Positions 3,601 to 64,000 of a DNA stretch of 64,000 nucleotides are shown in pieces; position 1 is the stretch's first letter; every line of letters starts with the position of its first letter. Made by a program: the position numbers and the translations under genes. The DNA is from Octopus vulgaris (taxonomy: Eukaryota), in assembly GCA_951406725.2 (NCBI GenBank), contig OX597816.1, forward strand, positions 32,984,001 to 33,048,000. Direction: 5' to 3'. A model generated the notes under the pieces. The model saw nothing but the letters and a program-made list of their open reading frames with translations. It ran no database searches and was not told where the DNA came from.

Positions 3601-3760
3601 AAAGGGAAAGTTTACGAAAATAAACAAAAGATGAAGGCAGGTGGTGTACAAAGAAACATGTATTTGTATAGCGCTCAGGAATAGAAAAAAGTATTTTACG
3701 TTTCGAGCCTACGCTCTTCTACAGAAAGGTACACAAAAAAAACAAGGAGAGAAAAAACAT
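3601..3760 (-). mobile_element. Penelope-like non-coding repeat (pLTR-like), copy 1, next to (TA)n
   Basis: Closely similar to 5036-5210; carries an HHR-like motif. Confidence 0.6.
3694..3727 (-). ncRNA. Minimal type I hammerhead-like motif, variant core CUGUAGA
   Basis: Minus: ttt-CTGTAGA-a-gagc-gtag-gctc-GAAAC-GTA-aaa; stem II gagc/gctc, palindromic ACGT stem III, GUA site. Confidence 0.55.
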
Positions 3761-5035
3761 GTGTGTGTGTGTGTGTGTGTCATTTAGAGATAGAAGTCCC
3801 TATGCAATTCATAAAATCCTAATATACATCACACCGTACCATAGAATTATATTTTAGTACTATTTCAGTTCTAAATTTCTCTTCTACACTTGTTTCATGA
3901 GGTGCGATTAACGTACCCAAGACTCTTAACTCTTAACTGCCACCCCAATCATCAGGACGCTTCATAACTTTATATAATTTTAAAACTATTCCTATATTTT
4001 ACTATTTTATCAGTAACGCATGTAACTAAGAAACAAATATGCGGGAGTGCAAATAAATTCGCCGAACCTTGGCATGCAAGTCATAATTTAATTAATTCAA
4101 AATAAAAAATTCAAAAACATTAATTCAAACGTGACTTAAGCCAAAAATCATACATATAAATTAATAATATATAGGAATGAAGAAAATTATAATATATCTA
4201 TAATATCTCTATCTCTAAGTGACATATATTTCCTTATCGAGAATAATTCAATTTATTTGAATCCCTGTGACGGCGGGATTTTTATTCCCTAATTAAAATA
4301 TAAATAATATATATATATAAATAATATATATATATATATATATATATATATATATATATATATATATATATATGTATATTTATTTATACACATATATATA
4401 TATGCATATATATATATGTATATATATATATATACATATATATATTTACATATATCTATATACATATATATATATATACAAATATATACATATATATATA
4501 TATATATATTTACATATATATATATATATATATATATATTATATATATATATATATAAATATGGCTATGAATCAAATGTGGTCCATTCCTGACTACCTTT
4601 TTAGCACGATTTCATTTTCATGTTTCTTTCTCATATTTCCATGACATGAAGCTCTCATTTCTCAGATTTTGTTGACTTTAAATCGTAATTGTTGTTTCTG
4701 TAACATTGCTTTTACATTAGAATGTCAATGCTACTCAAATCAGTTTTAATTCTGGGAAAAAGTAAGTCCATATTATCCAAATCTCAATTCCTACACCTGC
4801 CCAGCATGATGTAACTACCTGATGCTTAGAGCCTTCTTGTTTCACTGGCATAGCTGTAAATATCAATGAGGTGCACAAACCACCACATCGCATCAAGAGT
4901 TGAACATTCCGCCGGATACATATACATGCATACACATATATACATATGTATACATATATTCATATATATGCATATATATACATATGTATACATATATACA
5001 TATATATGCATATATATACATTGGTGTGTATATAT

Positions 5036-5320
5036 AATGGGAAAGTTTACGAAAATATACAAAAAACGAAGGCAGGTGGTGTACAAACAAACAAATGTAT
5101 TAGTATAGCGCTCAGGAATAGAAAAAGTATTTTACGTTTCGAGCCTACGCTCTTCTACAGAAAGATACACAGAAAAAAATCAAGAAGAGAAACAAGGAGA
5201 GAAAAAATATGTGTAGTGGCTAACGATCTATCATGGCGTCTGACTCGGACAGAATGGTCAGTCGCGAGATGGACTGTAGGGGAGATAACAGGGTTAACTG
5301 ACTTCCTATAGGAAGGAGCC
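5036..5320 (-). mobile_element. Penelope-like non-coding repeat, copy 2, flanked by (TA)-rich tracts on both sides
   Basis: Same family as 3601-3760 but longer. Confidence 0.6.
5130..5163 (-). ncRNA. Minimal type I hammerhead-like motif, variant core CUGUAGA (copy 2)
   Basis: Identical to 3694-3727. Confidence 0.55.
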
Positions 5321-6129
5321 CTATATATATATATATATATATATATATATATATATATATATATATATATATATATATATATATATATATATATACATAT
5401 ATATATGCGTATGTATGTTTACAGGTATTTATCTATCTATCTATGTTTAATACCAATACGCTCATTAGTCTTAATGAAAAATTATTTAGTCTATTACACA
5501 ATCCTTAGCGAGAATTAATACTTAATATTGCCAATTATGTTGCTAAATTAATATTAATGCTAACGAAAATTTCATATAGACTTTTTTTTTACCTATTTAT
5601 AGAAAAAAATATATTCTGCAAATCTCTATCATTGCATACTAAGACGTAATTATATTTCCTGGTCAACAAACAGCCATAACAACAGTGAATTGATTTGGAA
5701 ACTGAATAATTTTATGTCATAACCGGAATGATATATTTAGAGTTAACTTTTCAATGAAAAACAAGTGTGCTTTTTCAGATTTTTTCGTAAATTCACCCAA
5801 CTGTACCGTGTTTAAAATAAAATATTGATTATGTTTAAAGCTCTACGTACATTGATCCTATATTTCTGAGTTGAGAGAAATAAAAATTTATTACTTTTAT
5901 GCAATTCCCAAGGGCATTAACAGCAAAATGTTGTATAACGTTTTGTAACATTATAGAGATCTAAATTTTAATGAAAATGGATTTCTGAGGAACATGTCAT
6001 TAACCAGCAATTGCTGAGCAGGCGAAGTCACAATAAAATGTAGATATAAAAATAGATTCATAGGAACGTAGATAGAAAGATGGAGAGAGATACAGACAGA
6101 CAGAGGAAGAAAGAAAGAAAGAAAGAAAG

Positions 6130-6555
6130 ACAGATATATAGATAGACAGACAGATAGATAGATAGCTAGCTAGCTAGCTAGCTAGATAGATAGATAGATA
6201 GATAGATATATAGATAGATAGATAGATAGCTAGATAGATAGATAGATAGATAGATAGATAGATAGATAGATAGATAGATAGATAGATAGATGTTCGGTTG
6301 GATGGAAGGCTGGAGGGATAGATTGATAGATAGATGGATAGATGGGTAGAGAGATAGGAAGATAGATACGGAAGATAGACAGACAAACAATTGGATATAC
6401 AATATATATATGTATATATATATATATACATATATATATATATATATGTATGTATATATATATATATATATATATATATATATATATATATATATATATA
6501 TATATATATATGTATGTATGTATGTATGCATATATATATATATATATATATATAT
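6130..6555. repeat. Compound (GATA)n/(TA)n microsatellite
   Basis: Read directly from the sequence. Confidence 0.95.
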
Positions 6556-6559
6556 AAAT

Positions 6560-61199: not shown

Positions 61200-62050
61200 G
61201 GCTGGCATTCAAAACTTCTTAACGACGGACAGCAACGTACTGGCAGTTTAAAGGCTGGCGCAAAATTTTGAACTTGATGTAAAAGAAAATTCCTAAACAA
61301 GCAAGCGTCCAGAACACACAGCGTAGACGAAACAAACAAATCAATGCTGTGGTCATTGAGCGTTACTACTTGAGCAACACCGTAGAGGAAAATGGTTATT
61401 CATCTTAGAGGATACCGATAACGTATGTATGATCAATGGAGAGAAAGAGGATTCTGTCAACTCAGAGATTATGTGAGCAGAGCTAGAGCAATAAGAAAAA
61501 ATCGTTGGTTCACAGAAGTAGGGCTCAAGGGTATCAAAAGACCGGTATTGGAAAACGGCAGCAGAGAAAACGATGGAAATACAGTTCCTACTGATAAAAG
61601 TAATCTCATTGCAGAAAGCAGAGGTGAAACAGCAAATAAACCTCAGGAAAGGAACAGTGATAGCTTACTCGATGAGAGACATATAGATGGTTTCGAAGAA
61701 GACAATAAAACTAATGGTGACATGACAAATGGGCAAAGAGCAATCTACGACCAATTAAAGGTAAGGCTACAGGAGAAAGATAGCGATGGAAGCAGTATCA
61801 TGGAAAGAAGAATGTGAATGAAATTCTGAAATACACCAGAACAAAAAAAAAACATCACAGGAACAAATAATTTGAGTAGAGCAACAAGTATTGTTGTGGC
61901 AGAAAATATGGGTGCTGATGTCAAGAAAAGGAAATATAATGCGAGTGACAAAAGACAATTAGGAGCTTAAAAGTGAACAAAAATATAGGGCACTAAACAC
62001 GAAGTATAATATGAAAAGGGCTTGAAAGTAGTAATGGAGGAATTGAAAAT
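61200..62050 (+). mobile_element. Degraded R4/Dong N-terminal region
   Basis: VVIERYYLS...YR*RMYDQWRERG...RARAIRKNRWFTEVGLKGIKR. Confidence 0.75.
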
Positions 62051-62069
62051 GAATGTATATTTATATATA

Positions 62070-63491
62070 CAAGCGGAGCTACCCGGCGTTGTTGCTCGGT
62101 ATTAAAATAACATAGTTTGTATATAATATATTACAGTTATGTTGAAACAGTAGATATGGGAAAGTGCAGCATTAACAACAAGAAATTTGTTGAGTAAATG
62201 ATGGTCAAATTCGACTAAGCAACATACTATGCGTCCGTCTAGAGTATTTCAAGCCGTAACCTGTCATGGAAAATTGGGAGTAGGGGATATGCGATATTTG
62301 TACGCACTGAAAAGCTGTCAGTGGTTATACTCACTCTTGCAGCAGTCGGTGCTGTGTCTAACACAACCCCTCATCTGAAATGTTTGCCCCTCCTTCATGT
62401 TTGTTGTCCTACATCACTCATAAATTAAATTTGGAGGAACTGTGGTTGCTCATTTATGGGTAACAAAGAGCCAATGGGGTGATAGACTTGCCCATGAACT
62501 TTGACGTCGGATTAAATTCTTGTTTATTTATCTACTCAAAAGCATCAAACGATGTCATTTGAAATGCAGAGTTGTATTGTCTGATATTGTTCAGAAAATC
62601 TTTTGACTGGAAGATGTGCCTTCTAGCAGATTGTGAAGACGCTGGTAGTGCTGGCAATGTTACCTAACCGTCTGAGCAGAACTTACCATTTGTTGAATTT
62701 TGAAGCTCTACAGAAACGACAATTTGTGTTTAGCACACCAATTTGGACAGACTTACCATTTTTATAACAATGGGATGGATCATATCTGTAAACAGCTTCA
62801 GGAGTTGTGAAGAACGAAATTGTACGTAGTCTGTTTCTGAGAGCTATTCTAGGGGACCTCTGTCTAATCATTATAACATTGATTTAATGATCCAGCATTA
62901 AGTGTTGCAGCATGCAATTGCTGATCTTGGGAAAGTCCCACCTCTCTTCTCTATTGAGACTTCGTCTGACGTGTTGCAGCATACCTTTGCCGATCTGGAG
63001 AAAATCTCATCTCGCTTCTCCCTTCAGACACTCGCCTTTGGTTTTCTACACTCCTCCTCGCTTTATACTTGCTTCTGTAGAGATTACGTTTATCTTTAGT
63101 GGCATATTTTTTCAATAATTTAAACAAAAAAAAAATGAACATAGAAAGAAATTATACATTAATCTCTATTTTTACAAGCAGTTTTAAGTATGTAGAATGT
63201 TTTTACTTTTGTATGCAGTATAAATAAACCAAATAGAAGCACATGTATGAACTGTTAATTTAACGGTAAATTCTGAAATAGTGTAAAAGATAAGAGATTG
63301 TTTGAGCTCGCATTAGGCAAGAAGTTGAATTTTTGGGACCATGACACTCATGGACCCTAAGTAAGGCATGTGTAAAACATGAATGAAATCGGTTTTATAG
63401 TTCTCGAGTTTTAGGGATTCACACTGACAGCCTGACAGTCACATCTTTATATATATATATATATATATATATATATATATATATATATAGA
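62070..63491 (-). mobile_element. Internally deleted Helitron with RepHel N-terminal remnant
   Basis: Minus 5' TC(TA)n; FLNNIRQYNSAFQMTSF at 62547-62597; CRFCRASKF; 3' hairpin CCGAGCAAC..GCCGGG then CTTG (decayed CTAG). Confidence 0.85.
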
Positions 63492-63589
63492 GAGAGAGAG
63501 AGAGAGAGAGAGAAAGAGAGAGAGATACACACACATGTATATGTGTATGTATGTATGCATGTATGTATATATATATATATATATATATA

Positions 63590-64000
63590 TAATACTACAA
63601 AATTAGAGAATGGAGAAACATACTTAAATCAGTAAAACATCAACTATCCGATGATACTCAATCCATACTTTAATACACCATTACATATGAGTAAAGGCAA
63701 TATATAAAATGAAATGAGATATACAGTAATAGTAAAAGTAAAAAGATAAAGAGATATAAGTAAAAAATTTCAAATATAATATGCAAATAAATCAAAACTG
63801 ACAGCTGTTTCGGCAGTGAGGACAGTCATACCTCATTTAACCTATAAGCCATAAAGGCAGGTATAAATGAGGCATTAACAAGGATGCCCCACGGCCTCTT
63901 CAGAGAATTAAATTAAATTTGTTATAATAGTGAAAAATATTATATAATCATATACATATAAATATAAAAATATAAAAATGTAAAATATAAAAACTTATAT
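63590..64000 (-). mobile_element. Penelope-like non-coding element next to (TA)n; may run past the window edge
   Basis: Contains an HHR. Confidence 0.6.
63798..63905 (-). ncRNA. Type I hammerhead ribozyme with long structured stem II
   Basis: Minus: ct-CTGAAGA-ggccgtg...cactgcc-GAAAC-agct-GTC-ag; palindromic ACAGCTGT; GUC site. Confidence 0.75.

Follow-up and report, generated by a model that had tools for sequence, protein, structure and literature searches.

Eight hammerhead motifs in a stretch of the Octopus vulgaris genome lie at the ends of Penelope-like element families

Hammerheads with a palindromic stem III have been described in Penelope-like elements (PLEs; Cervera and de la Peña 2014, PMC4209133), and for the Hydra clade of PLEs the anatomy, protein motifs, hammerheads and (TA)n preference are in print, including those of Hydra-1_Obim from Octopus bimaculoides (Craig et al. 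2021, PMC8557442). Metazoan non-LTR retrozymes (Cervera and de la Peña 2020, PMC7229834; Li et al. 2026, bioRxiv 10.64898/2026.07.22.740005) are likewise non-coding repeats whose type I hammerhead has a palindromic loop III, and are described there as 150–450 bp tandem units without a coding partner in cis. One PLE has been assayed in vitro, and its hammerhead mutants still inserted (Frangieh et al. 2024, PMC11167929); no biochemistry of any Hydra-clade element was found in the literature searched.

The window analysed here is a 64,000-nt stretch of Octopus vulgaris DNA, in which an earlier note had placed eight hammerhead motifs in about six elements, read as a non-autonomous, non-coding population. 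All eight are present, at 39190 and 45166 on the plus strand and at 3694, 5130, 6736, 29427, 37336 and 63798 on the minus strand. They fall into six families, which we call A (3694, 5130), B (6736), C (29427), D (37336 and 39190), E (45166) and F (63798). Since one insertion (37229–39347) carries 37336 in one arm and 39190 in the other, the eight motifs represent seven insertions (Table 1), and the count of six holds for families but not for insertions. The motifs do not define a novel class of non-coding element but belong to a known kind, the ends of PLEs. Very probably they are hammerheads in the 3′ pseudo-LTRs (pLTRs) of 5′-truncated copies of six protein-coding PLE families. Target-primed reverse transcription is the likely route of insertion, with (TA)n as the target for five of the six.

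Table 1. PLE insertions and hammerhead cores in the window, with putative clades; L numbers denote loci used for comparison.
Family (putative clade)	Feature	Coordinates	Strand	Remarks
A (Neptune-type)	3′ end, 5′-truncated	3602..3766	-	87% to pLTR of RT-bearing copy L308
A	Hammerhead core	3724-3697	-	CUGUAGA, 4-bp stem II, stem III ACGU
A	(TA)n at 3′ end of copy 3602..3766	3510-3601		
A	Second 3′ end	5035..5321	-	Hammerhead core 5160-5133; TA-rich repeats both sides
B (Hydra clade)	pLTR, long 3′ end	6570..6796	-	98.8% to full-length copy L156
B	Hammerhead core	6774-6740	-	Stem III ACAAUUGU; element ends in (TA)n 6402-6568
B	Inverted arm, short 3′ end	6796..6885	+	Runs into (TA)n 6885-6923
C (Hydra-type, linker-less)	pLTR, long end	29230..29550	-	Ends in (TA)n 29113-29229
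C	Hammerhead core	29503-29431	-	G at cleavage position, likely dead
D (Hydra clade)	Inverted arm, long end	37229..37532	-	Ends in (TA)n 37071-37228
D	Intact hammerhead core	37409-37340	-	Stem III ACAUAUGU
D	Sense arm: ~1.5 kb 3′ UTR and pLTR, short end	37536..39347	+	Ends in (TA)n 39348-39673; 87-88% to 3′ UTR of ORF-bearing copy L162
D	Sense-arm hammerhead, disrupted by partial duplication	39194-39314	+	
E (Penelope/Poseidon-type)	Copy	44951..45264	+	Not TA-flanked
E	pLTR end and ORF start, joined to pLTR	44951-45112; 45112-45264	+	
E	Hammerhead core	45171-45206	+	CUAAUGA, likely dead
F (Hydra clade)	3′ end, short end	63592..64000	-	Extends ~400 bp beyond window; (TA)n 63535-63591; 98.9% over 844 bp to 5.6-kb unit in L166
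F	Hammerhead core	63903-63800	-	85-nt stem II, stem III ACAGCUGU, 2-bp stem I

In longer copies of each family the same hammerhead is preceded, as judged by motifs, by a reverse transcriptase (RT) frame with a C-terminal GIY-YIG endonuclease (EN), and direct pLTRs bound the full units. All six families therefore have RT plus GIY-YIG partners in the same genome, contrary to the non-autonomous reading, and the statement that no element encodes a protein holds only for window copies other than that of family E, which includes ~130 nt of the family's ORF start. In family B an 839-aa open RT and GIY-YIG frame lies between direct pLTRs 6.0 kb apart (L156; further direct pairs in L256–L258), and seven of 64 protein matches span the whole frame without stops at 97–100%. 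Direct pLTRs 5.6 kb apart enclose the RT and EN frames of family F (L165, L166), those of family E are ~2.6 kb apart (L250, L251), and family A has two such pairs around coding sequence (L313, L320); none was seen for families C and D. The pLTR is found downstream in 16 of the 18 ORF-anchored family C loci listed, the remaining two having an inverted arm; it is also downstream in 16/20 RT-anchored loci of family A and 6/7 ORF-extended loci of family E. In L158, L161 and L162 the family D frame stops 1.85–2.0 kb before the hammerhead. All 34 family F copies examined, a query-biased sample, have RT and EN in separate frames, and the common variant has neither a canonical slippery site nor a strong downstream structure for a programmed frameshift. 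An intact full frame was found only in B, the frames of A, C, D, E and F being broken or cut short; several families may thus be moved in trans today, or may have died out. Four sequencing-run contig sets, whose RNA status is a guess, partially cover the family B pLTR and ORF with no joints; as such contigs carry no information on ends, strand or circles, they are given no weight here. Pfam and PDB searches with the Hydra-type frames gave no significant match (family C a sub-threshold GIY-YIG, E-value 0.0024), Pfam being weak or silent for the six families in general, and the RT and EN identities of these frames thus rest on motifs and by-eye comparison.

Within each family the 3′ end is fixed while the 5′ truncation varies, often with a back-to-back inverted arm (seen in B, C, D, E and F), and in all six the ragged 5′ ends reach into coding sequence. 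TA follows the 3′ end in 23/24 copies of F, 44/49 of C, 22/26 of B, 26/33 of D and 26/39 of A, but in only 5/48 of E. The association with TA is thus real for five of the six families, and in the window six of the seven insertions abut (TA)n, family E being the exception. Internal pLTRs of tandem copies lead into 5′ UTR rather than TA; the TA run lies outside the element. Two discrete 3′ ends are present in B, C, D, E and F, separated by ~38 nt in E, ~69 in D, ~80 in B, ~145 in C and ~170 in F, whereas family A has one main end. Long and short ends are paired in 40 of 45 two-armed insertions (F 10/10, C 15/17, D 12/13, B 3/5), the exceptions being one long plus long B locus and four unclassifiable cases; only the family F sample is unbiased, as the long end was part of the B, C and D queries, which makes one arm long by selection.

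Sequence comparison suggests that B, C, D and F belong to the Hydra clade (C as Hydra-type), with A appearing to be Neptune-type and E Penelope/Poseidon-type. The Hydra placement is by motifs and by-eye comparison with printed Hydra excerpts, and the proteins resemble the published Octopus one. Naiad, a first guess, was rejected because the Naiad endonuclease is N-terminal in the account of Craig et al. (2021). In alignments all four families have DKT in place of DKG, and the RWK-type motif, in a region recovered for B and F, is IKWK and IRWR respectively. A CxCx5C linker precedes GIY-YIG in 29/30 EN frames of B, 4/4 of D and 30/34 of F, and in the endonuclease of all four families CxxC and CxH flank the conserved E and N with no canonical CCHH by eye. 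These features agree with the Hydra descriptions in PMC8557442 for B, D, F and partly C, as do the hammerhead close to the 3′ end, with its stem II flanked on both sides by an extra nucleotide, the (TA)n targets and the inverted 5′ arms. Family C has the linker in 0/15 EN frames and an RT with 43–47% identity to those of B, D and F, and is filed as a linker-less Hydra-type variant for these reasons. The families here differ from the published ones in length, B being 6.0–6.3 kb and F 5.6 kb as opposed to mostly <3 kb (a descriptive rather than diagnostic trait in that paper), in Asn-rich inserts and 3′ UTRs of 1.9–3.2 kb (B, D, F), in tails of 70–170 nt rather than 30–40, and in stem II lengths of up to 51–85 nt in C, D and F. 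None has the stem III ACCA-A-UGGU given for Hydra-1_Obim. The 5.6–6.3 kb Hydra units, the intact B frames, the 70–170 nt tails and the long/short pairing are modestly new, and TA targeting without the CxCx5C linker in family C is a further modest new point.

Family A resembles the Neptune clade (Arkhipova 2006 as summarised in PMC8557442) in its DKG, a CX2-5CxxC zinc-finger linker before GIY-YIG (CxxC in 10 of 11 EN frames) and TA-flanked ends, with Neptune rather than Nematis assigned without a tree; it departs from that clade in a U at core position 6 throughout the family, and all copies seen are decayed. The A6C hammerhead variant has low activity, and A6U goes unmentioned in the part of that source available (PMC3088659). 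Family E is like PAc of Anolis, as far as PMC11167929 describes it, in being linker-less (both of two EN frames), in the open frame through the pLTR (with the ORF start inside it), in its unit size and 3′ end spacing, and in having no TA preference; it is unlike PAc in its many short internally deleted tandem units and in the tRNA-like segment that some copies carry ahead of the pLTR, which is still a by-eye call because ARAGORN reported a tRNA gene in 0/10 family E loci. The L252 frame, first grouped with family E, is a C-like element. The motifs share with the minimal PLE hammerheads of PMC4209133 the type I order, a short stem I, a palindromic stem III and the extra nucleotide that follows A9; like them they occur mostly as solo motifs in truncated PLEs and form close opposite-strand pairs, and they differ from that description only in sequence and in scale, with ~10^5 extrapolated here versus at most ~9,000 per genome.

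The reading of these motifs as type I, dimer-type hammerheads tied to PLEs was correct, and the palindromic stem III was confirmed in all six families: ACGU in A and E, ACAAUUGU in B, ACAUAUGU in C and D, and ACAGCUGU in F. The support comes from variation of the palindrome across families, preferred to covariation within them since inserted copies undergo neutral decay. The described motif order with a CUGxxGA core is present, but the cores of 29427, 45166 and 39190 are altered. The first has lost the cleavage-site C found in 38/44 unique motifs of its family cluster, and the core changes probably render both it and 45166 inactive; the partial duplication at 39190 splits the hammerhead. No monomer hairpin is predicted for the isolated stem III palindromes, and the predicted duplexes range from -1.7 to -11.1 kcal/mol. 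Co-folding of two copies predicts a complete double hammerhead for B and D, and for F an intermolecular stem III with stem I absent; for window copies of A, C and E no hammerhead dimer was predicted.

It seems unlikely, though of the alternatives it deserves the most attention, that selection maintains the hammerheads in the source elements although they play no part in insertion, being carried as RNA parasites or acting only in transcript turnover; this alternative bears on function alone and does not conflict with PLE identity. Parasitism was raised by Craig et al. (PMC8557442), the assay of Frangieh et al. (PMC11167929) as reported found insertion unaffected by mutation and no reads ending at the cleavage site, and the element 3′ ends here sit 40–380 nt beyond the cleavage site rather than at it. 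Against it, six families of three clades retain the core and a self-complementary stem III of differing sequence, and the modal stem III is palindromic in nine of ten multi-copy clusters with a descriptor that did not demand a palindrome.

It is distinctly improbable that the elements are non-autonomous retrozymes, whose short non-coding tandem transcripts would be self-cleaved, circularised and re-inserted by a borrowed enzyme, and for A–D and F this is largely refuted. Outside the window family E forms short internally deleted units of ~276–336 bp, head to tail with a hammerhead in each (L114/L118, L115/L127, L117/L125), which partly correspond to 150–450 bp retrozyme units, but their spacer is the ORF start of the family's own autonomous element. 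A genuine 359-nt tandem family with a 6-bp stem I, also outside the window and unrelated to the six families, does fit the retrozyme idea (its flanks were read at one locus, the other loci coming from match coordinates), and retrozymes have been argued in the preprint of Li et al. (2026) to derive from pLTRs. Among the seven window insertions, however, there are no such non-coding tandem units with hammerheads and no same-strand tandem with two intact hammerheads (0/7), leaving circRNA formation unsupported for these copies; with their 5′ ends reaching coding sequence in all six families, the window elements are the truncated ends of coding elements.

A relaxed descriptor (core CUGANGA with at most one mismatch, stem II, GAAAC, palindromic stem III and a stem I of at least 2 bp) returns precisely the eight window motifs and none extra, where 300 block-wise dinucleotide shuffles average 0.1 and never exceed 2. 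This figure is partly tuned because the descriptor was relaxed after a stricter version recovered only three of the eight (3 palindromic sites, where 200 shuffles give 0.04). In 40 unselected 10-kb stretches the same descriptor gives 20 motifs versus 0.27 in 30 shuffles, so motif frequency is above shuffles in both settings. The density of one motif per 8 kb suggested earlier is right for the window but not for unselected DNA, where it is one per 20 kb (Poisson p 0.017), or one per 30 kb minus one tandem array (p 0.002 for the window excess); a rough extrapolation would put ~10^5 motifs in the genome. An Rfam scan of the window had no hammerhead match at E<=5, and for that reason neither supports nor excludes these variants, and four loose matches to reversed-order cores were found by sequence, none convincing by eye. 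Chance matches in AT-rich repetitive DNA, for which the Rfam result, the tuned descriptor and the non-standard cores of several copies might be cited, are scarcely credible given these excesses, the same motif position within each of six families, and intact cores in most copies of F (25/25), D (30/31), B (21/25), C (20/25) and A (15/25), if not of E (6/15).

For insertion as PLE ends, the following course would apply. By extension from Frangieh et al. (PMC11167929), a transcript would read from one pLTR into the next unit and be bound by the element's protein. This protein would nick TA-rich DNA and start reverse transcription at either of two internal positions, the source of the short and the long 3′ end. 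Two-armed insertions would arise where both DNA strands are primed, and short solo ends like those in the window where synthesis stops early. The hammerhead, presumably unable to form stem III alone, would cleave only when dimerised or assisted by protein; it would probably serve to trim the precursor RNA and is perhaps dispensable for insertion. The window copies themselves are most likely inert by-products.

More tentatively, and with the odds somewhat against the whole, there may have been a recently active radiation of oversized Hydra-clade PLEs with intact B copies, whose insertions would preserve a record of the mechanism and in which every two-armed event uses both RT start sites, one per DNA strand and 70–170 nt apart, as expected of a dimeric enzyme that primes on both strands; TA targeting would be free of the zinc-finger linker to which it has been attributed (family C), and the same machinery would spread the 359-nt retrozyme, together accounting for the ~10^5 dimer-type hammerheads.

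The general weight of these observations is low, as palindromic-stem-III hammerheads in TA-targeting PLE ends are in print, octopus included. Family B provides intact copies of a Hydra-clade element as usable material, and B, C, D and F set beside E allow TA targeting to be compared, in a natural setting, between elements that have the linker and elements that lack it. With its long tails, the long/short end rule is a clean genomic read-out for how inverted insertions form.

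All eight hammerhead motifs listed in the earlier note are present in the window sequence, and a strict descriptor recovers three of them. A looser descriptor, which permits a single mismatch in the core, one additional nucleotide at the stem II base, a stem II of up to 130 nt and a stem I of 2 bp, returns exactly the eight versus 0.1 per shuffled window (maximum 2, 300 shuffles), although it was tuned and the 8 versus 0.1 partly reflects this. We therefore ran it on 40 unselected stretches of 10 kb from the same genome, where it finds 20 motifs in 400 kb versus 0.27 in shuffles, with a single tandem array supplying 7 of the 20. 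The motif rate in the window is 2.5–4 times the sampled genome rate, and the sample extrapolates roughly to ~10^5 motifs in the 2.8 Gb genome of 227 contigs. Rfam models detected none of the window's hammerheads.

The window motifs are very probably the ends of Penelope-like elements (PLEs). They had been assigned to non-coding elements, but reverse transcriptase (RT) and GIY-YIG endonuclease (EN) frames are tied to the family ends, so none of the families is non-coding, and the window holds truncated ends. First-look candidates, which are not copy numbers, range from ~800 to 3,900 per family, and within each family the copies have a common 3′ end and a variable 5′ extent. In family F (motif at 63798) the RT and EN frames lie between direct repeats spaced at 5.6 kb, and the window copy shares 98.9% identity with this unit. 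In family D (37336 and 39190) ~1.9 kb separate the end of the frame from the hammerhead downstream, and the family C (29427) pseudo-LTR (pLTR) lies downstream in 16 of 18 readable ORF-anchored loci. In family A (3694 and 5130) the frame, ~1.2 kb upstream, is decayed but carries DKG and a CxxC linker, and the family A end is found downstream in 16/20 RT-anchored loci. In family E (45166), translation of the window copy's 'spacer' gives the beginning of a frame, which longer copies extend into RT and a GIY-YIG without a linker; the pLTR lies downstream in 6/7 ORF-extended loci.

The family F pLTR is 100% identical in 40/40 scored matches. The RT and endonuclease of this family lie in different frames, at the same place, in 34/34 copies examined (a query-biased set, loci L165-L168 and L362-L391), and in 22 of these the RT frame is also closed 47 codons upstream; family F was possibly moved in trans. 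Some family E copies (at loci L107, L129, L130 and L229) have a tRNA-like segment and (AAT)n immediately upstream of the pLTR. The segment appears by eye to have A- and B-box-like sequences, ARAGORN found no tRNA, and the segment with its (AAT)n could be a SINE-like derivative.

Locations of features in the window and at other loci (L-numbers) of the same genome
Feature	Location	Remark
Non-LTR retrotransposon cluster	window 50623-51342 (-), 52278-54131 (+), 54123-58027 (+), 23860-24510	RVT_1 match
Diverged 18S rRNA 3′-part fragments	window 18921-19343, 19423-19604	Rfam 61.5 and 51.9 bits
Interstitial (CCCTAA)n-like tract	window 30611-30682	inside repeat
Imperfect long hairpins, MITE-like	window 28886-29074, 59999-60100	
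Family D 3′ UTR and pLTR	window 37536-39347	
Family D inverted arm	window 37229-37532	
Further PLE family, long open RT + GIY-YIG frame	L206:3006-4781	
Further Hydra-type endonuclease without linker, related to family C	L252:95-736	
359-nt tandem retrozyme-like family	L322:2097-4768 = G000:C1:20002097-20004768, outside window	unselected stretch

Three window motifs match their family core, those at 37336, 6736 (family B) and 63798. The motif at 29427 has a G at the cleavage position, where C is present in 38/44 unique family motifs (a count that excludes motifs with G by design), the core at 45166 reads CUAAUGA, and the motif at 39190 is split by a partial duplication. The hammerhead core changes G17 and G5A are inactivating. 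Both family A motifs have the U at position 6 that is common to the whole family, together with a weakened stem I; an A6C variant is described as slow in vitro (PMC3088659). A survey with no palindrome requirement gave 161 unique motifs, grouped in 24 clusters, from 2.0 Mb of DNA mostly chosen for these families, with family F below its stem I cut-off. There, 14/24 clusters and 9 of the 10 multi-copy clusters have a palindromic modal stem III, whose sequence varies from cluster to cluster. The isolated palindromes are predicted to form duplexes and no hairpins. Co-folding of two copies predicts a full double hammerhead for families B and D and an intermolecular stem III for family F; no double hammerhead was obtained with the A, C and E copies of the window. 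A G-U-compatible variant occurs in 5/21 family B motifs, including both ends of an intact copy (L156).

TA follows the 3′ end in 26/39 (A), 22/26 (B), 44/49 (C), 26/33 (D), 23/24 (F) and 5/48 (E) cases, totals that include alignments running on into the next unit. In the unselected sample (TA)5 lies within 400 nt downstream of 55% of motifs versus 22% of random positions, although the tandem-array copies in it do not count as independent. The inner pLTR of tandem copies continues into the 5′ UTR, and the TA is therefore not element-encoded. Families B to F each have two alternative 3′ ends, long and short, spaced by ~80 (B), 145 (C), 69 (D), 38 (E) and 170 nt (F). Two-armed insertions combine one long and one short end in 10/10 (F), 15/17 (C), 12/13 (D) and 3/5 (B) cases, a pairing free of selection for family F, whose query alone was without ends; one family B exception is long-long and four cases are unclassifiable. 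The two-armed insertions of B and D in the window obey the same rule.

Frangieh 2024 (PMC11167929) describes a PLE protein that nicks both strands of AT-rich DNA, with two internal start sites for reverse transcription, which determine the tail; the hammerhead cut solely with protein present and was dispensable for insertion in vitro. By analogy, the elements whose anatomy, coding partners, TA targets and two ends we observe here may use the same protein nicking and two-site priming. Early termination of reverse transcription would leave solo ends, priming on both DNA strands could generate inverted arms, and the ribozyme would presumably act on the precursor RNA, either as a dimer or with help from the protein.

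The suggestion of retrozyme-like elements fails for the window insertions and stands elsewhere in the genome, for a 359-nt tandem family. At L322 the 359-nt unit is present in five direct and two inverted copies with TA runs on either side, and its hammerhead has a 6-bp stem I and the stem III ACCGGU. The family has 2,166 first-look candidates, with two arms at 23/40 loci (hand count, 150 matches listed of 171). One arm ends near position 175 and the other near position 220 in 23/23 two-armed loci, again by hand among the matches listed, which is the same one-short-one-long signature as in the PLEs.

Among other sequences, the non-LTR retrotransposon cluster, putatively R4/Dong, sits between (AAT)n runs and includes a near-complete copy (54123-58027). 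The 18S rRNA fragments are partly duplicated at 80% identity, and the repeat flanks of the (CCCTAA)n-like tract (30321-30594 and 30683-30776) both match 48469-48884, with less sequence between them at that second site. The L206 PLE family has a CCGAUGA-core hammerhead with stem III ACUCGAGU ~1.1 kb downstream of its frame.

Craig 2021 (PMC8557442) gives RWK, DKT, a CxCx5C linker, no CCHH, canonical hammerheads and (TA)n insertion as criteria for the Hydra clade, and lists Hydra-1_Obim of Octopus bimaculoides there. Families B, D and F agree with the motif criteria, the clade call being made from motifs, whereas in family C the RT and EN motifs are present and the linker is missing from 15/15 frames; that this family is nonetheless TA-flanked at 44/49 ends speaks against the proposal that the linker is tied to targeting. 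RT identity among B, C, D and F is 43–48%, and their matches to A or E are 24–29% where BLAST found any. None of the four carries the Hydra-1_Obim hammerhead. Minimal and small-palindrome hammerheads in pLTRs were already known from Cervera 2014 (PMC4209133), described there as mostly solo motifs from truncated copies and as having low activity in vitro. For Octopus vulgaris, a recent repeat annotation reports 31 recently active Penelope-like families, with no mention of Hydra or ribozymes in its main text. The window motifs are real, and are new members of clades already described, with a few measurable twists.
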